A stretch of DNA of 64,000 bases from an uncultured bacterium (GCA_943787795.1 CALSNU010000004.1:448001-512000); one strand, 5' to 3'. Positions 37,798 to 57,006 are shown, numbered from the stretch's first letter. Translations and numbers: made by a program. The notes: generated from the sequence alone by a model not told the origin.

Positions 37798-40700
37798 TCA
37801 GGCCACGAGCGAGGGCGCGTCCGCGGTTCGAGACTCAGCCGACACGGTCAACAGGTCAGCCACCGCGTCGACTCCCAGGCCTCGAAGCGCCGCGAGTTCA
37901 CCCTCGGCTCGCCAGATGTGGGCGAGTTCGGTCAGGTACTCGTGCAGCTGTCTCGAGCATGGCCGTCGCGAGCTCCACGCCCTCTGCACCAGTGCGCTCG
38001 AACGAGCCGATGTGCACCTGGCTCAGCTCTTCTGCGAAGCCCTCGGCCCGTGCCCTGTCAGGCAGAGTCTGCACCACGAGGTCGTCGTGCAGGCCGACTG
38101 TGCCAGCCAGGCGATCCCGCCAGATCCGATGTCGACCGGCCGCAGGGTGGGCCGCGACGATCTGGAGTTCGCTCGCAGCGCGCTCTCGAGTCCATTGACG
38201 AAGGCCCTCGAAGGTCCACTCCTTGTGGTGCTCGACATGTGCTTCGTCCCGATGGACCACCCGCACTCCGGCGAGGTCCTGAAGACGGAAGCCCAGCTCG
38301 AGGTCGACGCTCCCCGCGAAGCACTCCTCCTCGGCAACGCCACCGACCTCGAGGACGGCGCGACGGGAGACGCTGGCATTGCACAGGCGGAAGGCCGTCC
38401 AGTCGTGGAGGCGTGTGACGTCGAGAGGGGCGGAGAGCGAACCGAGGTCCTGCCCCTCGAGCGAGCGCATCAGCGCGTTGCTGCCCGTGGCAGGGGCCCC
38501 CGTCACCGCGCCGACCACGGCCCGATCCGGCCCCGTCTCGTCGTGTGCAACGAGGTGGCGCTGGACGAGGTCCGGGGCGGCGGCGGTGTCCCCGTCAAGG
38601 AAGAGCACCAGCTCGGCGCGCGCTGCGCGGAGCCCGGCGTTCCAGGCTGCCGGCGCCGAGGCCCCGGCGAGCTGAATCCGCTGAACGGGGATGATCGGTG
38701 ACCAGGAGTCAAGCCAGGCGCCGCCTTCAGCGGAGGCGCCGTGGTCCACCAGCACCACCTCGAACCGGCCGGCCGCCGTCTGATCTTCGAGCGACCTCAT
38801 GCAGCGGCGGAGCGCCTGGGCGCTGCCCTCTGCACAGACAATGACGGAGAGCGCAGGTTGGACCTGCTCTCCTTCCCCGTGGACCTCCGGGCAGGTGACC
38901 GACGGACCGTCGCAGCCCGCTCGCTCGCAGAGCTCTCGGTAGGTCTCCGTGATCGAGGCCCTGACGGGGACCTGGACCTGGCTCCGCGGGGACCCGGTCA
39001 CTGCACGGAGCGGCGACGGCTGGAGCTGCTGGCCGACGAACGCCTCGAGGCGCGCGCGGCCCTCTTCCGAGTCCAGCTCATCCGCGTGGATGAACAGCCA
39101 CTCCCCCTCGCCGGAGTGCTCATCGAGGATCCGGCGGTAATTCTGAGCCCAGATCTCGGTGGCCCCCTCGAAGTCGAGGGTGACCCCGCCGTACTCGGGC
39201 ACGCGGACCAGGGCCCTCAGGGCCTCATCGGCCGCAGCCGCAGGGTCGTCGAAGACGCAGACGAACTTCGCGTCCCCGAGGGAGGGCCGCCAGGCGGAGA
39301 GCGTGTGGCAGAAGCGGGGATCCCCCTCGACGGGGCGGCCCTCGGCCAGGAGCCGGTCCATGCGGTCCCGAAGATCGGACTCGACGTTGAACTGAAGCGC
39401 CCCTTCCGCGCGGACGAAGCGCTGCTGAAGGCGCGCCATGGGCTCCCCGTCGCGGACCGCGTCGCTCAGCAGGAACTCGTTGATCGCGACCGTCTCTGAC
39501 ACCGCCTGCGGGGCGCTGGGCGCCGGGCCGAAGAGCAGGGCGTGGGCGGCCCCCAGCGCATCGTCCGAGGCTCCGACCACCACGAGGGGCCGTTCGAGAG
39601 TCGGCGGCGCAGGCGAGTGCGACGCCTCTCGGGGCTGTTCCCGGGGCGCCACGCGGGCCGCCTCCTCGCTCGGTGCGGGGGAGGGCTGGTGCGCGACGTT
39701 CGAGCCCGCTCCGGCCGGCGTCGCTGCCGGCTCCGAGGCAGCCAGCGCCGGATGCTCCGCGCCAGGCCAAGTCGGCGGCGCCGCGTCAGGTGCAGGCAGA
39801 TTGAAGCGCAGCTGCGACTCGGTGGCCTCACCGAGCTGCGGGAGCTGGACTCTTGAGTAGTCGAAGAGCGGCGCGTCGCCGGCTGCGGGGCTCCACTTGG
39901 CCAGGAACGCGCGCCAGTTTTGCTCCATCCAGCCGTTGTGGCGCTCCACCTTGGCGGGGCCGTCGTAGAAGGCGTGATAGACGAAGGTGTCCCGCGCCAC
40001 CCGGTTCCGCCACCCCGAGAGGCGGACCCGCAGCGCGATGTCGTCGTCCTCGAATCCCCAGGGAGAGAAGGCCTCGTCGAACCCTCCGATGCGGTCCAGG
40101 ACCTCTCCCCTCACCAGGACGCCCAAGGACGTGAAGAGGACCGAGTCCATTCCCCGTCGCGGCGCCGAGTCGAAGTGGGTGTCGGCGAATCGCTGGAGCT
40201 CCTGCTGCTCGTCGGAGCCGTGGTACTCCACCACCTGGTGCTTGGAGGCTCGGTTCGCGCAGAGGGGGATCGAGCCGACGGCCGGATCCACTGCGCCGTG
40301 GTAGAGGGCCCGGTCGAGCCAGCCCTCCGGGACGAAGACGTCATTGTCCAGGAAGGCGACCCACTCTCCCTGAGCGTGACGGATCGCCTGGTTCCTCGCG
40401 CGCGGCGCGCCGAAGTTGAAGGGGTTGCGAATGAGCGTGATGTCCGGCTGCGCCTCCAACCACTCGGCGCTGCCGTCCGTCGAGCCGTTGTCCACGATGA
40501 GGATCTCCTGCGGGTAGCGGGCGTCGGCGCCACGGCGCAGGGACTCGATGCAGCGCTGCGTGTTTGCCAGGGCGTCGCACGAGACCGCGATGATGCTCAC
40601 GCTCGTCCCTTCGGGCGCGCTATCCCGGCTGACCACCCGGAAGTCGACGCCCGTGTGCTCGAAGTAGAGGCCGCACAGTCGGGGGAACTGCGCCGCGGCC

Positions 40701-41647
40701 GAGACCACGGCGGCGAGCTCTGTGATCTGCTCAGGCGTGAGGTCCGTGCCGGCCGGCTGGGCATCGAGCTGTTCGAGCAGGTCTTGGTTGAGCTCTGACG
40801 CCTCACGCTGCTGCTCGAGGAGATCGATGAAGTCTGGCCGGAGCCCGTCTGCCGTCACGGTCCCCTCATCAAAGAAGACGTCCGGGGCGCCGACCTTGCT
40901 CCCGAGGCGCAGCTGATAGCGGCCCAGCTCGAAGGCCCGCTCAAAGAAGCTCTCGGCCGTGATGACGTGGTCGTGGTGCGCCACGCAACTCGCGCTGTGG
41001 ACCACTTGCACGCCCTGCTCTTCGAGGCGCAGGCCCAGGTCGAGCCCCTCGCAGATCGGCTGGTCGAAGTTGACCTCGTCGAATCCTCCGACGGATACGA
41101 AGGTCTCGGTGGGTGCGCTCAGGTTGGACGTCCAGAAGAACGGCCACCCGTAGCGTTCCCCGTCCTGGAGCGCGGAGAAGTGCTGGAAGAGGTCGGTCTC
41201 ATCGAGGAGGCGGGTGAAGGGGGCCTGACGCGCCTCCTCCGAGAAGCGGAACGAGCCGAGCACCGCGCAGGCCCCATCGAGCTGAGCGTGCGCCGCCACG
41301 TGCTGCTCGAGCAGGTTGGGCGCGGGGACCGCGTCATCGGTGAGCAGCAGGACGAGGGGTCCGGCGGCGAGGGCCAACCCGACGTTGCGAGCCGAGGCCG
41401 GGCCTCCCCATGCTTGGTGGGTCACGCGGCAGCGGTACGGGACGCTGTTCAGGTCGAACGCGAGCGCCGGCTGGCTGCCATCATCAACGACGATGACCTC
41501 GAAGGCCTCCGCGGGGAGCGTCTGCTCGGCGAGCATCCAGAGGAGCCGCGTCGCCGACTCGGGCCGCCCGTGGGTCGGCACGATGACGCTGATCTGGAGC
41601 ATGGCGGGGAGGGCGGAAGCGGACTCGTTCAAGCGCTCGTTCTTCAT
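37798..41647 (-). CDS. Multidomain glycosyltransferase: GT2-GT2-(degenerate sulfotransferase-like)-GT2; frameshift at ~37951
   Basis: ISVIVPTH/VDDGS/TDDAV; VDNGSTDGS/FLDNDV/GFEDDD; LSVIV/FLDGD. The ORF as written stops at 37898, but a protein-like tail QLHEYLTELAHIWRAEG...SLVA* lies in another frame ending at 37798. Confidence 0.85.
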
Positions 41648-47759: not shown

Positions 47760-47921
47760 CGGAGAAGAGCGTGTCCCTCGGAGTCTCGGAGAAATCGGGC
47801 CCCAGGGGAACCTGTGACTTCGCGCCCGTCGGGCACCCGAGGCAGGAAACTCACCGCGCAGGTCGGTAGGATCGGGGCCGTAGGGGGAAGAGGGGCGCGT
47901 TCCGCACCCTGCTCGAACATC

Positions 47922-50615
47922 ATGATGGGTTTTTGTCACCTGGAGCTGCTGCTCCACGCGAACACGACGTGGGTCCTTGGGCTTGTGCCTGCCGGAGGGA
48001 CGAGCGTCCTGGAGAAGCTGCCGCTGATCCTGGGCGGCGCGATCATCGGCGGGTTTGTGGCCTGGTTCCTCGCCAAGCGGCAGAGCCTGACCCAGCACCG
48101 GGTTCAGCAGGAGCTGTGGGACCGCAAGTTCAGGCTCGCCGAGGCGGACCGCGAGTCCGCGGTCACGTCGCTGAACCAGAACAACATCGACGTCAAGCGC
48201 GTCAAGGGGACGTACGAGGCCCACGTGCAGCGCATCACGGGGCTGCAAGCGGAGCTCGCGTCCGAGCGCGCCCACGTGGATCAGCTCCGGGCTCGCATTG
48301 ACGAGCAGGACGAGGCCACTCAGGGGCTGCTTGAAGCCCGCGACTCGAGCGACGCCGCCGCCAGCGCGGCGCGGTCTGAGGCGGAGCAGAAGGCCAGGGG
48401 CCACCGGGAGGTCTCGCAGGAGCGTGACGAGCTCGTCGCCCGCGCGGAGGCGCTGGAGTCCGAGCTCGAGCAGGCGCGAACAAAGATCGCCGAGGACACC
48501 CAGTCCTTCCGCTCCTCCATCGCCGAGCGAGATGAGCAGATCGCAGAGTGGCAGCGCCGCCACGCCGAGGATCAGGAGTCCACCAGCGCCACGCTCACCG
48601 GCCTCGAGGAGCGCATCCTCGAGCTCGAGCCGGCGCCCGCGCTGCTCGAAGAGACCCGGCTCGAGCTCGACGAGTCCCGAGCTGAACGCGCGCGACTCGC
48701 CCGCGACAACGCCAGGGCCGTCGAGGAGATCGAGGCGAAGACCGCCGAGGAGCTCGAGGACCTACAGCGCGCCCACGACGAGACTCAGCGCACCGCGGGC
48801 GCCGAGGCCGCGCGGGTTCAGGCCGAGCTGCGAGAGCGCCTGGCGGAGCTGGAGCCGCTCCCCGAGCAACTCGAGGCCGGCCGCGTCGAGCTGGAGCTGG
48901 TCCGGGCAGAGCTCACCGCCCTGCTGGAGTCGAGCACCGCCGAGAAGGAGGCCGCGACCGAGGAGCTGGAGGCGCTGCGCCGCTCCAGCCAGGAGGCGCG
49001 CGAGACGGCGTCGTCCGAGGCCGGCATCATCCAGGGGCAGCTCCAGAGCCGCCTCGCTGCGCTCGAGCCCCTCCCGGAGAAGCTCGAGGCCAACCGCGTC
49101 GAGCTGGAATCGGTGCGGGCCGAGCTCGCCTCGCTCCTCCAGTCGAGCGCCACCGCGCAGGACGCGGCGGCGGCAGAGCTTGCGACCCTGCGCCGCTCGA
49201 GCCAGGAGGCACGAGAGGCCGCCTCCGCCGAGTTCGGCGTCATCCAGGGAGAGCTCCAATCCCGTCTCACCGCGCTCGAGCCTCTGCCCGAGCAACTCGA
49301 GGCCACCCGCAAGAACCTCGAGACGGTGCGAAGGGACCGGGACACCCTGGCCGAGTCGACGGCCGCCGAGATCCTCGACCTGAAGGGGCAGATCCAAGAG
49401 CTGCTCCCGCTCGAGGGATTGCTCACAGGCAGCCGCAGCGAGGCAGACAAGCTCCGCAGCGAACTCGCGAACCTCGAGGCAACCTCCGCCAACCACGAGT
49501 CCGAGCTGCGAGAGCGCATCGCCGAGCTGGAGCCGCTCCGGGAGCAGCTCAGCGGCGCGCAGAGCGACCTGCGGAACTCGCGTGACCGCGTCTCCGAACT
49601 CGAGCCGCTGGTCTCCCGTCTCGCCCGCGTGGAGACGGAGCTCTCCGCCGCCGGAACAGAGAACAGCTCGCTGAAGACCTCGAGCAGGGAGGAGATCGAC
49701 GCTCTCGAGGCGAAGGTCGAAGAGCTCGAGCCCGTGATCCTCGAACTGGCCCGCCGCGAGGGTGAGCTCACGGTCATGCGCGAGCGCATGTTGACCCTGG
49801 AGCCGCTGCCCGCACAGCTCCGCGACCGGGAGGCCGAGCTCGAGTCGCTTCGCGCGGGCTCGGAGCAGCGCGAGGAAGGCGCACGGTTGAGGGAGCGTGA
49901 GCTCGAGCAACGCTTGAAGCAGCTCGAGGGCATCGAGGACGAGTTCCTCGCGACGCGCAAGGAATTCGGCGACTTCAAGAAGACCGCGGCGCGCGATGCG
50001 CGGGCCTCGGAGCTCGACGCCAAGCGCCTCGCGACAGCGCTTGAGGATGTGTCCGCACGGGCAGCCGAGGTCGAGACACTCCGAGGGCGCCTGACCGAGC
50101 TTCAGGCCTCGCAGAAGGCCGACCAGCGTGAAGCGCACCAGCTCCGGGGCCAGTCCACGAAGCTGGAGACTCGACTGACGAGCACCAAGCTGAAGCTGGA
50201 CGAGCATGCCGCCCAGCTGAAGGAGGCTCGAGCCGAGCTCACCAAGCTCCGCCGGGTCGCGGCTCGGGCCGAGGCCAAGGAGCAGACCGCGGCTGCCAAG
50301 GCGGCTTCAAGCAAGGCCGCAGCCGCGCCGAAGAAGGCCGCCGCCAAGCGCTCTGGCACGAAGGAGAACGTGAAGACCCTCCAACCCGCGCCTCGTCGCG
50401 GCCAGGACGACCTGACCGCGATCAGCGGCATCGGCCCCAGCTACGAGAAGGTGCTGAAGAAGGCCGGGATCCACCGCTTCGAGCAGCTGGCGACCTTGAC
50501 CGCGCCCAAGCTGTCTGCTCTGGCCGAGAAGATCGACATCCCGGTCGACCGGATCAAGAAGGACCGCTGGATCCAGAAGGCCAAGGCGCTGCACCAGAAG
50601 AAGAGCAAGTCGTAG
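47922..50615 (+). CDS. Membrane-anchored long coiled-coil protein with a C-terminal helix-hairpin-helix domain
   Basis: One TM (LILGGAIIGGFVAWFL), about 750 aa of heptad-rich sequence, Lys/Ala linker, DDLTAISGIGP...AGIHRFEQLA...WIQKA. Start uncertain. Confidence 0.8.
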   Translation: MMGFCHLELLLHANTTWVLGLVPAGGTSVLEKLPLILGGAIIGGFVAWFLAKRQSLTQHRVQQELWDRKFRLAEADRESAVTSLNQNNIDVKRVKGTYEAHVQRITGLQAELASERAHVDQLRARIDEQDEATQGLLEARDSSDAAASAARSEAEQKARGHREVSQERDELVARAEALESELEQARTKIAEDTQSFRSSIAERDEQIAEWQRRHAEDQESTSATLTGLEERILELEPAPALLEETRLELDESRAERARLARDNARAVEEIEAKTAEELEDLQRAHDETQRTAGAEAARVQAELRERLAELEPLPEQLEAGRVELELVRAELTALLESSTAEKEAATEELEALRRSSQEARETASSEAGIIQGQLQSRLAALEPLPEKLEANRVELESVRAELASLLQSSATAQDAAAAELATLRRSSQEAREAASAEFGVIQGELQSRLTALEPLPEQLEATRKNLETVRRDRDTLAESTAAEILDLKGQIQELLPLEGLLTGSRSEADKLRSELANLEATSANHESELRERIAELEPLREQLSGAQSDLRNSRDRVSELEPLVSRLARVETELSAAGTENSSLKTSSREEIDALEAKVEELEPVILELARREGELTVMRERMLTLEPLPAQLRDREAELESLRAGSEQREEGARLRERELEQRLKQLEGIEDEFLATRKEFGDFKKTAARDARASELDAKRLATALEDVSARAAEVETLRGRLTELQASQKADQREAHQLRGQSTKLETRLTSTKLKLDEHAAQLKEARAELTKLRRVAARAEAKEQTAAAKAASSKAAAAPKKAAAKRSGTKENVKTLQPAPRRGQDDLTAISGIGPSYEKVLKKAGIHRFEQLATLTAPKLSALAEKIDIPVDRIKKDRWIQKAKALHQKKSKS
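48849..49310 (+). repeat. Internal 213-bp (71-aa) tandem duplication in the coiled-coil gene
   Basis: LEPLPE(Q/K)LEA units start at 48849, 49062 and 49275; LRRSSQEARE is duplicated. Confidence 0.85.
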
Positions 50616-50740: not shown

Positions 50741-51469
50741 ATGCCCGCCCGCCCTCCGACCACCGCTGAACGACCGCGCGAAGCCCGGCCCCCCCAGGCG
50801 CCCGGACCCGATCGGTACGGCCTGGCCGCCTGGGTCTACGACGTCGCGACCGCTGGCTGGAGCGGGGGAGCGATCTGGCGTACGAGGGCCCGAGCGCTCG
50901 AGCACTCCGCTCCTGGCTCGACGCTGCTGGTCCCCGGGCCGGGCACCGGACGGCTGGTCGTAGAGGCCGCTCGTCGCGGCCTCAAGGTGACCGCCGTGGA
51001 GCGCTCTCCACGGATGCTCTCGCGCTGTGAGCGGCGCGCCGCTCGCGGCGGCCTCCAGGTCCAGGTTCAGCTGGGGGATGCCCGCGACCTCCCGGCCGAG
51101 CCGCTCTATGACACCGTCGTCCTGGAGCACTTCCTCAACGTGTTCCCGCCCGACCAGATGGTCCACGTACGGGACCAGATGATCGCGCGGGTACGCCCCG
51201 GGGGCGTTCTCGCCGTGGCGGACTTCACGCCACTCGATCCGCAGGCCTCAGGGCTCGCAAGGATGGCCCAGCGGCTCCATCATGTGACCCCTCTGGGAGG
51301 CTGCGCACTGCTCACGGGGAACGCCATGCACCCGATCTACGACCACGGCCACGACCTCGAGGGGCGGCCAGACCTCTCCCTGGAGGCGATCCACGACGAG
51401 CGCAGCTTCGGCTACGGGCCCGCCTGGTTCCGGTGCTGGATCTTCCGCCGGCGGGAGGCGAGCAAGTGA
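50741..51469 (+). CDS. Class I SAM-dependent methyltransferase
   Basis: LVPGPGTG motif I, VERSPRML, GDA, YDTVV, RPGG.LAVADF. Confidence 0.85.
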   Translation: MPARPPTTAERPREARPPQAPGPDRYGLAAWVYDVATAGWSGGAIWRTRARALEHSAPGSTLLVPGPGTGRLVVEAARRGLKVTAVERSPRMLSRCERRAARGGLQVQVQLGDARDLPAEPLYDTVVLEHFLNVFPPDQMVHVRDQMIARVRPGGVLAVADFTPLDPQASGLARMAQRLHHVTPLGGCALLTGNAMHPIYDHGHDLEGRPDLSLEAIHDERSFGYGPAWFRCWIFRRREASK

Positions 51470-52644
51470 CCGCCCCCGCTCCGTCCATTGCCCGCGCCAC
51501 CGCGGTGGCCCTCGCCAGCGGCACCCTGTTGCTCGTCGCCTTCGTCGTCCTCGGATGGCGCGACCTCGACGCCGCCTGGGCCGGGCTGGACTTCAACGCA
51601 GCGCTCTTCGAGGACTTCCTGGGCCCGTACTGGCAGACAGCCTCGGCCTTCGCCGCCGGAGACTGGGAGCCCGCGAAGGGCTACCTCTACCCCGCCTTCG
51701 GCGCGTGGCTCCTCGCGCCCCTCACCGTTCTCGGCGACGCGGCGGCCTCCTGGGGCTGCGCGGCGGCCATGGGCGGCGCCGCCTGCCTGCTGCTCGCGAG
51801 CCTCTTCACCCTGCGCCCGCCGTCGAGCTCCTTGGAGGCCGCAGCCGTGGGGGTCGCGGCGCTGCTCGCCCACCCGGTCGTCCACGGGGCGTACTGGGGC
51901 CAGGCCGCCCTGCCGGTAGCCGCCCTCACCCTGGCCGCCCTCGCCGCGTGGTCCCGCGGCCATGCGGTCGCTGGAGGCGCCCTCCTGGGGATCGCCGCCG
52001 CGATCAAGCTGACGCCGTTGGTCTTCCTCGCGGCTCCCCTCTTCAGCCGAGATCAGCCCGGCCTGCGGCGCGCCCTCGCCTGGGCCGTCGGCTCGTTCCT
52101 GACCTGCGCGGTCCTCCTCCCTCTCATGGCCATGGGCCCCGCCGGGTTCCTCGAGTTCCACGTGGAGGCCGCCCGGAACCTGCGGGCCCTGGCGAGCGAG
52201 GCCTCGACCGCGGCTGGCGGGCGAGGGAGCCAGGACCCCGGCGCGCTGCTCGCGCGGTCCGCCGGCCAGGGAGCGTTCTGGGTCGGCAAGGCCATCGGGC
52301 TCGCCGTGTCGATCCTCCTCATCCACGGAGCTCGAGCCGAGCTCCGTGGACCGGCGCCGCGCTGGGACCTCGTGTTCGTCCTCCTCGCGGCGCTCCCCTG
52401 GCTCCTCGTCACCCCCACCTGGACCCACGGCCTCATCTGGATCGTGGTCGCGTGGCACGCAGGGTGGGGTGGCAGCCTCGCCGGCCGAGGCCTGGTCCTC
52501 GCCTCCCTCGCCCTGGGCTCCCTCCCGCTCCTCCGTTGGACCGATGACCCCGTCCGTCACGCCGAGCTCGGACTCCCCGCCGCGGCGGCGGCCCTCGCGC
52601 TCGCCGCTGCGCTCCTCGCCAGGCGGGAGCCTGCCGCAGATTGA
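51466..52644 (+). CDS. GT87/DUF2029 membrane glycosyltransferase (GT-C)
   Basis: GTGA overlap with the methyltransferase; DF..Y, YLYP, WGQ, GIAAAIKLTP, PTWTH; many TM segments. Confidence 0.8.
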   Translation: MTAPAPSIARATAVALASGTLLLVAFVVLGWRDLDAAWAGLDFNAALFEDFLGPYWQTASAFAAGDWEPAKGYLYPAFGAWLLAPLTVLGDAAASWGCAAAMGGAACLLLASLFTLRPPSSSLEAAAVGVAALLAHPVVHGAYWGQAALPVAALTLAALAAWSRGHAVAGGALLGIAAAIKLTPLVFLAAPLFSRDQPGLRRALAWAVGSFLTCAVLLPLMAMGPAGFLEFHVEAARNLRALASEASTAAGGRGSQDPGALLARSAGQGAFWVGKAIGLAVSILLIHGARAELRGPAPRWDLVFVLLAALPWLLVTPTWTHGLIWIVVAWHAGWGGSLAGRGLVLASLALGSLPLLRWTDDPVRHAELGLPAAAAALALAAALLARREPAAD

Positions 52645-52728
52645 ACCGGCGGACGGATCCGGCTGATCCGTCGGCCACCTGAACGGATCGAGGCTGCTGG
52701 GCCGGCCTGCTGGGCCGGCCGCTTGGAC

Positions 52729-53514
52729 CTAGCGCCCGGGGAGCTCGCTCGCCGGAGCGGGCCCGCGCCTGAGGCGCTGCTCCGCCGCAGCCTCGACCGC
52801 ATCCAGGGCGGCCCCCATGCGCTCCACGGTCTCCGGTGACTCGGTCATCGCCATGATGGGCTCGAGCTCGATGGGCTCCCCCACCTCGATGGCGACCCTG
52901 CTGAAGGGAAGCGGGACCAGCAGGCGATCCCAGGTCCGGAGCTTGAGGCCCCACGAGCAGGCGAAGGAGAGCGGCACCACGGGGCTCCCCGAGAGGCGCG
53001 CGAGCATGATCGCTCCGGGCTTGAATTCGTGCGGCGGCCCCTTCGAGCCGTCCGGCGCGATGAGGGGCGAGAGGTTCGCCTCCTTGATGGCCACGTACAT
53101 GTCCCGCATGGCGAGGGCACCGCTTCGGCGGCCGGAGCCGCGAACGGCGGTCACGCCCAGCTTGTCCAGCAGCCGCGCCCCCAGCTCGCCGTCCTTGGAC
53201 GGGCTGACCAGCGCGCCGGGCACGACGCCCCGAGCCTGAAGTCGGCGCACATAGGCCACCCCCATGATCTGGCGCTGGTGCCAGATGCAGGGGATGAACC
53301 GCTCTTCTCGCTGGAGCAGCGGTTCAAGGTGCTCCTCGCCGTGCACGCGAATGCGCAGCGACGCCCAGTAGAGGCGTAGCGCCTGGGCGAGCAACCACGC
53401 GAAGCGAGGGAAGAGCTCGGTCCGCCACCGCGGCATCGGCTTCTGGGCGCGCGGTGCTCCGCGCTCACGATCGGGGAGCGCCGGCTGGTCGGACTCGGTC
53501 TGCGATCCACCCAT
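52729..53514 (-). CDS. DUF374 lysophospholipid acyltransferase family protein (LpxJ-like)
   Basis: IWHQR, LVSPSKDGE, VRGS, APDGSKGP, G.IMLA, TWDRLLVPLPFS. Confidence 0.85.
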   Translation of the reverse strand: MGGSQTESDQPALPDRERGAPRAQKPMPRWRTELFPRFAWLLAQALRLYWASLRIRVHGEEHLEPLLQREERFIPCIWHQRQIMGVAYVRRLQARGVVPGALVSPSKDGELGARLLDKLGVTAVRGSGRRSGALAMRDMYVAIKEANLSPLIAPDGSKGPPHEFKPGAIMLARLSGSPVVPLSFACSWGLKLRTWDRLLVPLPFSRVAIEVGEPIELEPIMAMTESPETVERMGAALDAVEAAAEQRLRRGPAPASELPGR

Positions 53515-53519
53515 CGGGT

Positions 53520-55535
53520 TCAGCTGCTACCGATCTTGCCGGCCTGAATACGCTCCGAGAGGATCACGGCGAGCCCGCGAATTGTGGGCTGGTCGAAGAA
53601 GTCGCGGATGTCGAGGCCGCCGGGATAGCGGGCCTCGATCAGCCCGTGGATCTCGGCGAGGTCGATAGAGCTCATCCCCTGCTCGAAGAGGTTGTCCTCC
53701 GGGCCGAAGCGCAGCCCGTCGAGCACGTCAGCGCAGAAGCCGCACATCATCGCTTCGATGTCCACCGGGGCACCCGAGCCACCGGGCGGCTCCGGGCTGG
53801 CCTCCTGCGCGCCCGCCGCGGCAGCATCCGCCGCGGCAGAATCCGCCGCGGCAGAATCCGCCGCAGCGGCCGCCGGCGCCTCCGACGGCGGCGGCGCGAG
53901 GACGGCGAGCGCCTCGTCGAAGTCCCCGGCGAGCAGGTCCGCCGCGAGCCGCGCCCGCTGGACCTTGCCGCTCGTGGTCCGCGGGATCTGCTGGACCGGA
54001 ACCACGAGGTCGACGCCGATGCCGTAGACGTCCGACAGGTGCTGCCGCGCGGCGACCGCGGTGTCCGCGAAGCTCGCCGGGTCGCCCCGGTGCACCATGA
54101 ACACCGCCGCCTCCTCGGCGGCCCCCGCGCGCTGGACCGCAGCCACCGCCACCCGCAGGGCGTCCACGCCCAGCGCCGATTGGAGGCTCTCTTCCAGGTC
54201 GTGCGGGTACAGGTTCTGGCCGTTGACGATCACCAGGTCCTTGAGACGCCCGGTGATGTGCAGGGCGCCGTCTCGCATGAAGCCCAGGTCCCCGGTGTCG
54301 AGCCAGCCCTCGCCCTGCAGCGCCGCGGCCGTGGCCGCGGGGTCATCGAGGTACCCCTCGGTGACGTTGTCACCACGGATCCAGACGCGGCCGACGTGGT
54401 CCTCAGGGAGGCCTCCACCGTCTGCGCCCGTGATCCGAACCTCCACCCCGGGGAGCGGCCGGCCACAGCCCACCGTCACCATGGCCTCTTCTCCGCCCGT
54501 CTCCTGGACCCGATCTCCGAGCCCTGAGGCCTCGCGGGCCAGTCGGATGCCCTGGATGATCTCGCCGGCGGCGGGGAAGGTGACCGCCAGGGTGGCCTCG
54601 GCCAGGCCATAGACCGGGAAGATGGTCGAGCGGGCCAGGCCGACCGGCGCGAGGCGGTCGAGGAACTCCTCGGAGAGGGCCAGGGAGATGGGCTCCGCGC
54701 CGTTCATGATCAGCCGCACGCCGGAGAGGTCCACGCCCTCGGGGATCCCCTTGCGGGCGATCGACTTCAGGGCATGGCGGTAGCCGAAGTTCGGGGACGA
54801 CAGGATGGTCGACCCGAGGGCCGCGGCGTCCTGGAGCCAGACCAGCGGGGTGCGCGCGAAGGCGGAGGTCGGCATCAGCGCCTGATCAGCTCCCCAGCGC
54901 AGGGGCGCGAGGTGGAACCCGACGAGCCCCATATCGTGGGAGAGCGGCATCCAGCTGAACGTCCGGTCGGCCGCGCCGAGCCCGATCCCCTCGCCGATGG
55001 AGCGCAGGTTGGCGAGGGCCTGGCCCTGACGGATCATGACGCCCTTCGGCGCCCGGGTGGAGCCCGAGCTGAACTGGATGAAGGCGAGCTCGTCCGACTC
55101 ACGCGGTACCTCCTGCCCGGGGACGCCGCCACCGACGGGCCAGGTCCAACGCTCGGCGAGGTTCGCCTGGTCGAGCAGCCCGAGCCCGGCCTCCTCGATG
55201 ACGAGCGCCGCGCCCGCGCGTCGCTCGAGGATGTCGACGATCTTCGACCGGCTCGACTCGTTGGAGGGCGGCGCGAGGGGCACCGCGATGAGCCCGCCGA
55301 GCTGGCACGCCCAGAAGATCTCAACAAACGCGGCGGGGTCATCCACGGGCATCACGACCTCCTGACCGCGCGTGATCCCCGCGCGCTGGAGGTCTCCGAG
55401 CCGCTCGAGCGCGGCATCCCGCAGCTCGTCGACGGTCATCCATCGGTACTGGCCAGGCTTCTCGAAGAAGCCGAGCCGCTGCTCCCCGCTCCGCTCGGTG
55501 CGGAGGAGGTCGACGAGGGTCTTGGGTTCGGACAT
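53520..55535 (-). CDS. Fatty acyl-AMP ligase (FAAL)-acyl carrier protein didomain
   Basis: FIQFSSGSTRAPKGV, SWMPLSHDMGL, SPNFGY, NGAEPI, YGLAEATLAV, TGDLGF, GRLKDLVI, PRTTSGKVQR; Ala/Pro linker; ACP NLFEQGMSSI...FFDQPTIRGLA. Confidence 0.9.
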   Translation of the reverse strand: MSEPKTLVDLLRTERSGEQRLGFFEKPGQYRWMTVDELRDAALERLGDLQRAGITRGQEVVMPVDDPAAFVEIFWACQLGGLIAVPLAPPSNESSRSKIVDILERRAGAALVIEEAGLGLLDQANLAERWTWPVGGGVPGQEVPRESDELAFIQFSSGSTRAPKGVMIRQGQALANLRSIGEGIGLGAADRTFSWMPLSHDMGLVGFHLAPLRWGADQALMPTSAFARTPLVWLQDAAALGSTILSSPNFGYRHALKSIARKGIPEGVDLSGVRLIMNGAEPISLALSEEFLDRLAPVGLARSTIFPVYGLAEATLAVTFPAAGEIIQGIRLAREASGLGDRVQETGGEEAMVTVGCGRPLPGVEVRITGADGGGLPEDHVGRVWIRGDNVTEGYLDDPAATAAALQGEGWLDTGDLGFMRDGALHITGRLKDLVIVNGQNLYPHDLEESLQSALGVDALRVAVAAVQRAGAAEEAAVFMVHRGDPASFADTAVAARQHLSDVYGIGVDLVVPVQQIPRTTSGKVQRARLAADLLAGDFDEALAVLAPPPSEAPAAAAADSAAADSAAADAAAAGAQEASPEPPGGSGAPVDIEAMMCGFCADVLDGLRFGPEDNLFEQGMSSIDLAEIHGLIEARYPGGLDIRDFFDQPTIRGLAVILSERIQAGKIGSS
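53812..53866 (-). repeat. 15-bp repeats encoding an (AAADS)n linker between FAAL and ACP
   Basis: ccgccgcggcag(a/c)at repeated about 3.5 times. Confidence 0.7.
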
Positions 55536-55547
55536 CGGAGGCGTTCG

Positions 55548-56885
55548 CTATCTGCGCGTGACGCTCAGCGGGATGGGGTCCCGCGCCCGGAGGTTGACGC
55601 CGGGCTCGATGGCCGGCGCCTCGGGGGTGAGCGCGTCGAGATGGTAGCGGGAGGACGCCCAGACGAGATGCTGGACCGTGGCGTTCAGGGCGAAGCCGTC
55701 CCCGGCGCAGCGGCGCGGCCCGGAGGAGAACGGGATATAGGCCCCCCGGACGGGGGCGATGCCGGACGCCGGGATCCGAGAGGGGTCGAAGCGCTCGGGG
55801 CTCTCCCAGTACGCCGGATGGCGATGCAGGATGTAGGGGGTGATCAGGATCTGGGTGCCCGCCGGCACCGGGTGCCCGGCGAGGACGTCGTCCTTGAGGG
55901 CCTTGCGCGTGAACATCCAGACCGGGGGATAGAGGCGCAGGGTCTCGTGAATGACCCGCGAGCCCAGGTCGTAGCGGCCCTGGACCATCTTGCCGTCCAT
56001 GATCGCAGGCCCGGCCTCGTCCACCTCCTCGGCGAGGGCGAGCTGGACGTCCTGGTGGCGGGCGAGCAGGGACCAGGCCCAGGCGGTGGTCGCCGCCGTG
56101 GTCTCGTGACCCGCGACCAGCAGCGTCATCAGCTCATCCACCAGCCCCTCCATGTCGAGGGGCTCCCCGGAGTCACGGTCCCGCGCGGCGAGGTAGCGCC
56201 CGAGGAAGTCCTCGGTCTCTCCGGCCGCCCCGCGGGCGCGGCGGGCCTCCACCAGCTCGCGGACCACCGGCCAGAGCTGGCGGAAGCGCATGGCGAACAT
56301 CAGGTCCCGCTGGACGGTGTCCACCACGAGGTTGAAGGGGTTCCCGCCCTCGCGCGCGTCGAGCGCCTCGAGGTCGTCTCCGAAGACCGAGCGGAGGATG
56401 ATCCGCAGGCCAAGGCGGTTGGCCTCATCCACGATGTCGAGCGGCTCGCCGCTGTCCGCGTGCGCTTCCCAGATCTCGGCGCGCTCCTCGATACAGCGGG
56501 CGATGAGCCCCCCCATGGCGCCGACGCTCGGTCGACTGAACGCGGGCTGAAGCATCTTGCGTCGCGTGCGCCAGTGATCGCCGTCCGACACGATGAGCCC
56601 GTCCCCCAGCAGCATCTTCACGCGCTCGAAGCCGACGCCCTTGCCGTAGTCGGGCTGCCGCCGCGTCAGGATCTCATGGATCGCCTCGGGATCGTTGAGG
56701 ACCCAGACCGGCAGGCCGCCGTCCCCGGCCACGTTGTCGGCGCCACCCTGCGGTGGAATGGCCCAGATGTCCCCGTACTCCGCGAAGCCTCGCTGGAGGA
56801 AGTCCAGGGTCTCCTGGTTCGCGTCGAAGGCGAAGGACGACCCGGGGCCAGGCATGGCGGCGTTGGATCGCGGCGTGGAGGTCAT
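55548..56885 (-). CDS. Cytochrome P450
   Basis: I-helix AGHETT, K-helix ETLR, PERF, heme ligand FSSGPRRCAG. Start at ATG 56885, because the longer ORF start lies inside the tRNA. Confidence 0.93.
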   Translation of the reverse strand: MTSTPRSNAAMPGPGSSFAFDANQETLDFLQRGFAEYGDIWAIPPQGGADNVAGDGGLPVWVLNDPEAIHEILTRRQPDYGKGVGFERVKMLLGDGLIVSDGDHWRTRRKMLQPAFSRPSVGAMGGLIARCIEERAEIWEAHADSGEPLDIVDEANRLGLRIILRSVFGDDLEALDAREGGNPFNLVVDTVQRDLMFAMRFRQLWPVVRELVEARRARGAAGETEDFLGRYLAARDRDSGEPLDMEGLVDELMTLLVAGHETTAATTAWAWSLLARHQDVQLALAEEVDEAGPAIMDGKMVQGRYDLGSRVIHETLRLYPPVWMFTRKALKDDVLAGHPVPAGTQILITPYILHRHPAYWESPERFDPSRIPASGIAPVRGAYIPFSSGPRRCAGDGFALNATVQHLVWASSRYHLDALTPEAPAIEPGVNLRARDPIPLSVTRR

Positions 56886-56929: not shown

Positions 56930-57006
56930 TGGTGGGCCCTGAAGGACTCGAACCTTCGACCAAGCGATTATGAGTCACCTGCTCTAACCGACTGAGCTAA
57001 GGGCCC
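56930..57006 (-). tRNA. ileX: tRNA-Ile2 (anticodon CAU, lysidine-modified type)
   Basis: GGGCCCTTAGCTCAGTCGGTTAGAGCAGGTGACTCATAATCGCTTGGTCGAAGGTTCGAGTCCTTCAGGGCCCACCA: full 77-nt cloverleaf with encoded CCA; closely resembles enterobacterial ileX rather than tRNA-Met. Confidence 0.9.

Follow-up and report, generated by a model that had tools for sequence, protein, structure and literature searches.

In a stretch of 64,000 nucleotides from an uncultured bacterium (GCA_943787795.1, CALSNU010000004.1:448001-512000; this whole stretch is the window below), whose genome belongs to a planctomycete genus, we analyzed a cassette of three genes which code for a cytochrome P450, a ligase fused to an acyl carrier protein (ACP) and an acyltransferase:

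55548-56885, minus strand: cytochrome P450, 445 amino acids (PF00067, E = 8.7e-57)
53520-55535, minus strand: adenylation domain of the fatty acyl-AMP ligase (FAAL) type with a C-terminal ACP, 671 amino acids (PF00501 and PF00550); ligase-ACP in the following
52729-53514, minus strand: acyltransferase of the DUF374/LpxJ family, 261 amino acids (PF04028); the second copy in the genome, from a cassette-linked clade

The first-pass annotation of this stretch had described three co-oriented genes with gaps of 12 bp and 5 bp, and the open reading frames and the Pfam matches over cut-off agree with this description. It had also stated that no polyketide synthase (PKS), nonribosomal peptide synthetase (NRPS) or thioesterase lies nearby, and there is indeed none among the 11 neighbour proteins scanned (to the right of about 37.9 kb the DNA was covered gene by gene). 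In the whole genome, which is 84.9% complete, we found no condensation domain and four ketosynthase matches, all within open frames of 440-498 amino acids and none of them PKS-sized. The ligase-ACP is therefore without a visible NRPS or PKS partner. The base composition is host-like (GC 71.5% versus 69.6% for the genome; GC at third codon positions 0.89-0.93). Saltatorellus ferox Poly30 has the same trio, with 60-75% identity in the best segments. In four marine runs from a single study, metatranscriptome contigs span the operon and its flanks equally, with low coverage; carry-over of DNA is possible, and these contigs give no indication of expression or co-transcription.

The trio, which had been proposed to act as one module, is conserved elsewhere. 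We compared three sets of loci: 79 loci anchored on the ligase-ACP, drawn from the 80 best among 138 confirmed matches; 80 metagenome loci anchored on the P450, the best of 588 that were confirmed; and the P450 loci in an even sample of 401 gammaproteobacterial genomes (threshold E <= 1e-120). Genes were labelled with hidden Markov models built on the loci of this analysis and Pfam-checked on representatives; weak LpxL labels in L032 and L208 (37 and 32 bits) were left out of the counts. The same gene order is present in 19 of the 79 ligase-anchored loci, in one of them with the P450 cut at the contig end. P450 and DUF374 genes occur together in 25 of these loci, one of which also has an LpxL-family gene, and two have DUF374 without a full P450, one being cut by the contig end. 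Five loci combine P450 and LpxL, one has LpxL only, and ten, mostly NRPS-like gene starts of Bacillota and Bacteroidota, have neither. Among the best 80 of 588 metagenome loci the ligase-ACP is the next gene in 78, the other two ending at the contig edge; in 59 a DUF374 gene lies within 2.6 kb, 21 have an LpxL gene, 14 have both and 66 at least one of the two; a phosphopantetheinyl transferase (PPTase) gene is found in 20 and sphingolipid genes in two. In the even sample, 18 of the 401 genomes have the P450, and all 17 new loci have the ligase-ACP next to it (DUF374 near in 12, LpxL in four, either in 16). Counting loci with full flanks, an LpxJ/LpxL gene or a sphingolipid block is present in 30 of 32 metagenome loci (from the same best 80 of 588) and in 14 of 15 gammaproteobacterial loci. 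Taken over both P450-anchored sets, the P450 is followed directly by the ligase-ACP in 95 of 95 loci having flanking DNA, usually within a few tens of bases and in two phyla. Conversely, ligase-ACP genes do occur without the P450, and the five such genomes tested all have no P450 match. One example is Pedobacter hartonius (L049:6001-8701), probably a third phylum, with ligase-ACP and LpxL and no P450; its sister locus L197 keeps the P450, so that the two make a natural pair with and without this gene.

The acyltransferase partner may be upstream and divergent, downstream and co-oriented or downstream and convergent, and the LpxL label switches at least 10 times on the ligase tree. DUF374 is present in 14 of the 18 P450-positive gammaproteobacterial genomes as against 38 of the 383 others, kin not being independent in this comparison; the latter count includes genome G104, flagged unpublished and used there alone. 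LpxJ and LpxL enzymes belong to two unrelated families which both act as late acyltransferases of lipid A (PMC6148475), and as far as gene content can tell the swapping of one partner for the other points to lipid A. Within the host lineage all 17 further genomes of the genus have the P450; it was also found in one of 19 other genomes of the family and in none of 24 genomes from other families. At least two DUF374 matches are present in all 17 genus genomes, and 23 other relatives have one (19 genomes), two (three genomes, one match being below the cut-off) or none (one genome). The lone P450 match elsewhere in the family (G026, 37%; L227:3460-7749) was rejected as a cassette member: it belongs to a separate trio with a classical FAAL and an ACP-thioesterase, which would release a free oxidised acid.

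The first-pass annotation had assigned the acyltransferase to the LpxJ family, an assignment that its sequence bears out. Besides the match to PF04028 it has W78, H79, D108, D155, W195 and D196 at the positions of all six essential residues of Rickettsia LpxJ (W60, H61, D86, D132, W172 and D173), a mapping read from the mutagenesis primers of the paper and not from an alignment with the Rickettsia protein. Mutation of any of the six abolished the activity of the R. typhi enzyme (PMC6148475). The WH pair is kept in 94 of 94 cassette DUF374 enzymes. In our trees (one with 131 of the 197 collected rows, one with 62) the window enzyme groups with the gammaproteobacterial cassette enzymes and apart from the planctomycete housekeeping copies (SH-aLRT 98). 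An in-situ duplication of the housekeeping gene was discarded: the AU test on a quick tree (LG+G4) speaks against a union of the window enzyme with the planctomycete housekeeping copies, which is rejected at p-AU 0.0022. Among 20 gammaproteobacterial DUF374 genes away from the P450, three fall into the cassette clade, and two of these adjoin a PPTase gene and one a ligase-ACP gene; the 17 outside the clade have neither within 3 kb. In the window's genome the housekeeping DUF374 is in two frames at a seven-G run just after the WH motif (L001:1216-2011; G000:C2, about 535.9-536.7 kb), and since the frames of its relatives are open an assembly error is likely. In locus L017 (3750-9770) the trio is flanked by a housekeeping-clade DUF374 and an LpxL-family gene, giving three late acyltransferase genes around the donor.

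The ligase-ACP consists of an adenylation part (about residues 1-550), an Ala-rich disordered linker and the ACP (about 590-664). Ser623, the phosphopantetheine serine at the start of helix II, is invariant in 38 of 38 relatives, and PF00550 matches over its cut-off. The best sequence match in the PDB is the E. coli FAAL (EcFAAL, 3PBK; E = 1.5e-69). For EcFAAL the characteristic features are W224, M231, F279, the FAAL-specific helix, T83, P107, P226 and T252 (PMC8460268). The first three, which block the coenzyme A (CoA) pocket, correspond to W195, M202 and F250 of the ligase, conserved in 38, 37 and 38 of the 38 relatives, and the alignment with 3PBK places the FAAL-specific helix at residues 223-228. 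Of the four alternative-pocket residues of EcFAAL, three are matched by P90, P197 and T223 and the fourth, T83, is Asp66 in the ligase; P90 is replaced by Gly in 25 of 38 relatives. Residues of about 330-355 align with the region which we take to be the FAAL-specific insertion of EcFAAL.

The P450 has the expected motifs (AGHETT at 258, E314-x-x-R317 as the ExxR motif at 314, heme Cys393), its predicted model has a pLDDT of 89, and Foldseek aligns it to P450s with a TM-score of about 0.8. It has no fused redox partner; six 2Fe-2S domain matches elsewhere in the genome are a possible electron source. In one gammaproteobacterial clade (L056, L069, L078 and L126; for example L078:5408-5824) a CDGSH iron-sulfur gene is located just upstream of the P450 or the ligase, and its product is a candidate electron donor. 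Three arginines in the B' helix and the F-G region (R88, R193 and R202) are kept without exception in an alignment of 38 relatives. These segments line the substrate entrance of P450s, and the arginines could form a docking site for the acidic carrier. We counted the 50%-cluster representatives of 400-500 amino acids (125 of the 150 listed): of the 34 with the highest scores, 30 have five or six of the six signature residues, versus four of the 91 lower-scoring ones. When split by score rank the family is no single clean clade against lower-scoring P450s (six changes), so its outer boundary is not fixed. The nearest solved relatives are CYP97, CYP184A1 (one structure with oleate), BM3 and CYP3A4 at 21-28% identity, and CYP170A1-type entries are also among the sequence and fold neighbours. 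The comparison with P450BioI (CYP107H1) drawn in the first-pass annotation has to be reduced to an analogy: this enzyme is absent from the nine PDB sequence matches (E <= 1e-30) and from the Foldseek rows to rank 50.

The host genome encodes LpxC, LpxK, KdtA and two LpxL-family genes, and a PPTase-like match is located on another contig. The known LpxJ enzymes are housekeeping 3'-secondary acyltransferases, which substitute for LpxM and add C14 or C16 chains (PMC6148475). Judged from the gene content, 3'-secondary acylation of a lipid A precursor by the DUF374 enzyme of the window is possible in this host.

On balance, we favour the view that the cassette is devoted to supplying an oxidised acyl chain for the secondary acylation of lipid A. 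The reactions might proceed as follows. A PPTase would prime Ser623; many other lineages have a gene for this enzyme within the cassette. The ligase would then take a free fatty acid and form the acyl-AMP and from it the acyl-ACP without CoA, as is known from the FAAL family, whose sequence marks are those examined above. The P450 would hydroxylate the chain with electrons from ferredoxins encoded elsewhere, and finally the extra DUF374 enzyme would esterify it to a 3-hydroxyacyl group of the lipid A precursor, alongside the housekeeping LpxJ/LpxL enzymes. Oxidation on the carrier is slightly favoured over oxidation of the free acid before loading, because the ligase-ACP survives without the P450 and never the reverse (95 of 95 loci), which agrees slightly less well with a ligase specialised for a hydroxy acid made beforehand. 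Gene coupling and the invariant arginines lend indirect support to a P450 that may act on an ACP-bound chain. As for the carbon that is attacked, our guess is that a sub-terminal or terminal position has about an even chance, since the structural neighbours of the P450 handle long hydrophobic chains; C2 or C3 would be distinctly less probable and any other position unlikely. The hydroxylation of C2 is a modification common to lipid A and ceramides. Steroidobacter agariperforans is reported to have 2.7% C12:0 2-OH (PMC4041242), a value that we left out of the argument. A match similar to LpxO is present in one of 18 P450-positive and 18 of 382 other genomes, which is uninformative on C2 hydroxylation, and PF05118 was not found in the window's genome by a search in which no positive control matched.

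Several observations weigh against this interpretation. In 31 of the 79 ligase-anchored loci, all from Burkholderiales, an AasR-type ligase follows downstream and the locus has no LpxJ/LpxL gene; in five others the P450/ligase-ACP pair is present without an acyltransferase in the DNA examined, and no acyltransferase partner is seen in two of the 32 and one of the 15 full-flank loci. Many of the best 80 of 588 metagenome loci are close kin. Two genomes (loci L251 and L252) have a cassette-clade DUF374 with a PPTase and no ligase-ACP match anywhere, hence this clade is not strictly tied to the donor. PF03279 also includes enzymes that do not act on lipid A, such as PatA. LpxJ enzymes have been characterised in four species only (PMC6148475). 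None of the top matches of the P450 is a carrier-binding relative. The identification of the ligase as a FAAL-ACP, made in the first-pass annotation, stands in part: most FAAL marks and the carrier serine are intact, whereas the position of EcFAAL T83 is Asp66, the NCBIfam FAAL model PRK09192 scores 362.9 bits against a cut-off of 600, and the top Foldseek match is McyG, an adenylation domain with a peptidyl carrier protein. The subfamily is distinct from the AasR-type ligase, which passes PRK09192. Since the fold resembles McyG and keto-acid adenylation domains no less than FAALs, we take a fatty acid to be the likely, though not certain, substrate.

The Burkholderiales loci deserve a closer description. 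Spt is seen in 29 of the 31 and the P450 in 28. The order is LptF/G, CDP-alcohol transferase, GNAT, two nucleotidyltransferases and PPTase; next come the P450 and the ligase-ACP, and after them a second ligase that exceeds the cut-off of PRK09192, an ACP, and an Spt that exceeds the cut-off of NF047599. The GNAT is labelled 'dATP pyrophosphohydrolase', which is presumably also the annotation of Caulobacter bCerS. The gene set agrees with the Caulobacter ceramide genes (PMC9393093, PMC11087976, bioRxiv 10.64898/2026.04.12.717747). In a family sample of 201 genomes, which may overlap with the loci already counted, the P450 is found in three and Spt in four; all three P450s are beside Spt, and the fourth Spt locus has no P450/ligase-ACP pair. 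DUF374 is absent from both sphingolipid-variant genomes tested. The ligases of these loci form one clade, which makes this a single recruitment into the sphingolipid locus. As Spt already has its own ligase and ACP, we infer that the simplest role for the additional pair would be to supply the N-acyl step of ceramide synthesis. In Variovorax-type loci (L035:11457-13913 and five or six similar ones) Spt is followed by two Pfam-less proteins and an ELM1-family gene, possibly head-group enzymes.

Since in Burkholderiales the pair sits beside an AasR-type ligase, an ACP and Spt, it is not specific to lipid A. Of the load, oxidise and transfer module that had been proposed, a conserved unit, the intact residues and the lipid A pathway of the host are retained, and its scope changes: the conserved core is the P450/ligase-ACP pair, and the system is wider than the trio, since it is also found with LpxL or in a sphingolipid locus. 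More tentatively, and with somewhat less than even confidence, we suggest that one portable pair may serve three unrelated acyltransferase systems (LpxJ, LpxL and the ceramide locus) as a source of oxidised acyl-carrier outside of type II fatty acid synthesis (FAS II), for lipid A in Gammaproteobacteria and the planctomycete genus and for hydroxy-ceramide in Burkholderiales, where the same pair would supply ceramide synthesis instead. We considered ceramide as the acceptor in the window's genome as well and rejected it. With a single query each in this 85% complete genome, there was no match to the bCerS-like GNAT, and Spt gave a match of 173 residues at 43% only. With these genes wanting and LpxC, LpxK, KdtA and two LpxL-family genes present, lipid A is the better acceptor here.

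The same chemistry could also be directed to another envelope lipid such as a lysophospholipid, a glycolipid or an amino lipid. Judging from its sphingolipid wiring in Burkholderiales, the pair can supply more than one kind of lipid; a housekeeping DUF374 and two LpxL-family genes are already available to the host; and a GT87 membrane glycosyltransferase is convergent in 10 loci including the window. Nevertheless, we consider such an acceptor unlikely: two unrelated families of late lipid A acyltransferases alternate beside the pair or flank it jointly, all residues essential for LpxJ are kept, including the WH pair in 94 of 94 enzymes, and GT87 is absent from other lineages. Moreover, genes of the lipopolysaccharide type adjoin the cassette, in some loci co-oriented with DUF374, namely LAB_N/GT2/PMT_2 (ArnT-like) genes in soil-type Gammaproteobacteria (L141:1-5306, L135, L137, L142, L145, L196, L205 and L219) and GT9 genes in L175, L178 and L183. 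It is still less probable that the ligase selects a 2-hydroxy, 2-oxo or aryl acid, on which the P450 would act while it is bound to the carrier, and that an unusual acyl group not made by fatty acid synthesis (FAS) ends up on lipid A. Among the Foldseek neighbours of the ligase McyG is at rank 1 and keto-acid-selecting adenylation domains are at ranks 3 and 5-8, along with FadD32 and FAALs; the invariant His208 in the acyl-pocket segment is common to 6ULW and not to the E. coli FAAL; and the ligase tree includes, nested within it, relatives with which NRPS-like genes of Bacillota begin. What decides for us is that the best sequence match is the E. coli FAAL, that the TM-scores to FAALs (0.66-0.70) are not below that to McyG (0.64), that the alignment with the E. 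coli enzyme extends to the HDMG motif, to W195/M202/F250, to the FAAL-specific helix and to the insertion whereas the motif of 6ULW differs, and that acyltransferases of these families use fatty acyl chains.

The P450 might also be a hitch-hiker, or act on another molecule such as a finished lipid or a secreted small molecule, with the ligase-ACP as a donor of salvaged fatty acids for lipid A. The persistence of ligase-ACP and acyltransferase without the P450 in several genomes would agree with this, as would the lack of a conserved redox partner in the cassette. In view of the strict linkage of the P450 to a directly downstream ligase-ACP (95 of 95 loci, two phyla) and of the family-specific invariant arginines in its B' and F-G segments, we regard this as quite improbable. 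That the genes are chance neighbours or the remnant of a secondary-metabolite cluster, as could be thought from the public annotation of relatives as 'non-ribosomal peptide synthetase', 'PksJ' or 'pentalenene oxygenase', is hardly tenable and largely refuted by the synteny counts: the cassette is conserved across phyla with changing flanks and kept by all 17 other members of the genus, and the genome has neither a condensation domain nor a ketosynthase of PKS size.

A donor of oxidised chains for lipid A can be compared with several known systems. In rhizobia, AcpXL and LpxXL form a dedicated carrier and a late acyltransferase that add a very-long-chain hydroxy-acyl group to lipid A. Likewise, the cassette has a dedicated carrier beside a late lipid A acyltransferase; in contrast to the stand-alone AcpXL, its carrier is fused to the ligase, a P450 would carry out the hydroxylation and the transferase is of the LpxJ type here. 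FabF/FabZ-type elongation genes, which AcpXL has for itself, are not among the recurring neighbours of the cassette, and only FabH occurs, in Woeseiaceae loci. The cassette would work like AcpXL/LpxXL without being a member of that system. LpxO (NF033391) is an Fe/2-oxoglutarate-dependent 2-hydroxylase of assembled lipid A; the end result, a hydroxylated secondary chain, would be alike, but in the cassette oxidation would precede transfer. Genome G116, one of the L251/L252 pair mentioned above, has two LpxO-like genes. Carrier-dependent P450s include P450BioI and those of the OxyD/NovI/P450sky types, to which the cassette P450 is similar in being genetically locked to a carrier protein, its sequence and fold neighbours being other than BioI. 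FAAL-ACP loading modules are known from MycA, TamA and AmbG. The cassette shares with FAALs and such modules (3PBK, PMC8460268) the fold, the CoA-excluding residues, the insertion and the fused ACP; it differs in that no PKS, NRPS or thioesterase follows and the product apparently goes to a membrane-lipid acyltransferase. With the LpxJ enzymes of Helicobacter, Campylobacter, Wolinella and Rickettsia (PMC6148475) the acyltransferase has the Pfam family, the six essential residues and a lipid A pathway of the host in common, whereas the cassette enzyme is a second copy with its own clade and is tied to a private ligase-ACP and P450. The Burkholderiales loci, finally, share Spt, ACP, the PRK09192 ligase, the bCerS-like GNAT, the CDP-alcohol transferase and LptF/G with the Caulobacter ceramide locus spt/acp/acps/bcerS (PMC9393093, PMC11087976, bioRxiv 10.64898/2026.04.12.717747), and have beyond it a second ligase that carries an ACP of its own, the P450 and a PPTase.

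In line with the first-pass annotation, to which the combination was not known as a described system, literature searches turned up no description of it, several of them being swamped by unrelated papers. The main text of a FAAL survey (PMC12820801) does not mention P450, lipid A or sphingolipid, and its supplements may list such loci; PMC11334938 does not mention P450. For the lipid A structure of the host planctomycete genus we found no paper. The acyl chains of lipid A are thought to derive from FAS II carriers and to be hydroxylated in FAS or later by LpxO. If our interpretation is correct, a private carrier fed by a ligase, together with a P450, would be a third route to hydroxylated lipid A chains; a cytochrome P450 would be placed inside lipid A biosynthesis, and scavenged fatty acids would be written into the outer-membrane anchor. 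A specialist would be surprised to see lipid A assembled with the help of a P450 and a non-FAS donor, and to see these reused in a ceramide locus. The proposal offers an orphan P450 family a function that can be tested, and does the same for a ligase-ACP whose present annotation is NRPS or PksJ; from it, an undescribed ceramide is to be expected in cultured strains of Variovorax, Acidovorax and Diaphorobacter. With its three genes in a single operon, the form found here is the simplest one for expression in laboratory E. coli with a view to lipid A engineering.

Two further features border the operon:

56930-57006, minus strand: tRNA gene with CAT anticodon (Met by ARAGORN), probable insertion site of the cassette
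52640-52735, minus strand: two GC-rich hairpins, a possible terminator region with weak support (z = -2.27; 8 of 200 shuffled sequences fold equally well)

The tRNA(CAT) gene, which the first-pass annotation had not mentioned and which we take to resemble tRNA-Ile2, lies 44 bp upstream of the P450 start on the same strand, and an upstream tRNA(CAT) is present in 14 of 19 related loci tested. Together with the placement in the DUF374 clade this suggests that the cassette was likely gained by the ancestor of the genus through one old horizontal transfer at the tRNA gene. In loci L011, L013, L015 and L020 differing genes are inserted between the tRNA and the P450, and the 3' side of the tRNA looks like an insertion hotspot. 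Locus L014, labelled Paracoccaceae, is probably a mis-binned contig; its three proteins all fall within the planctomycete sequences, with Saltatorellus ferox as their neighbour.

The hairpin pair is placed between the end of the operon and the convergent GT87 gene. A methyltransferase and this GT87 glycosyltransferase (50741-52644) are convergent with the operon; they were rejected as core members of the cassette, being present in just nine and 10 loci, respectively, of the planctomycete group only. In many metagenome loci (L151:336-2936 and numerous others among L127-L204) the gene immediately after the cassette DUF374 is of the PAS-GGDEF-EAL type, and a Fur-family gene is near the cassette in 16 loci, possibly reflecting regulation or merely shared ancestry. 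Further to the left in the window are genes for a coiled-coil-like protein of 933 amino acids with a helix-hairpin-helix domain at its end (47814-50615) and for a protein of 1249 amino acids with three GT2 domains (37898-41647).

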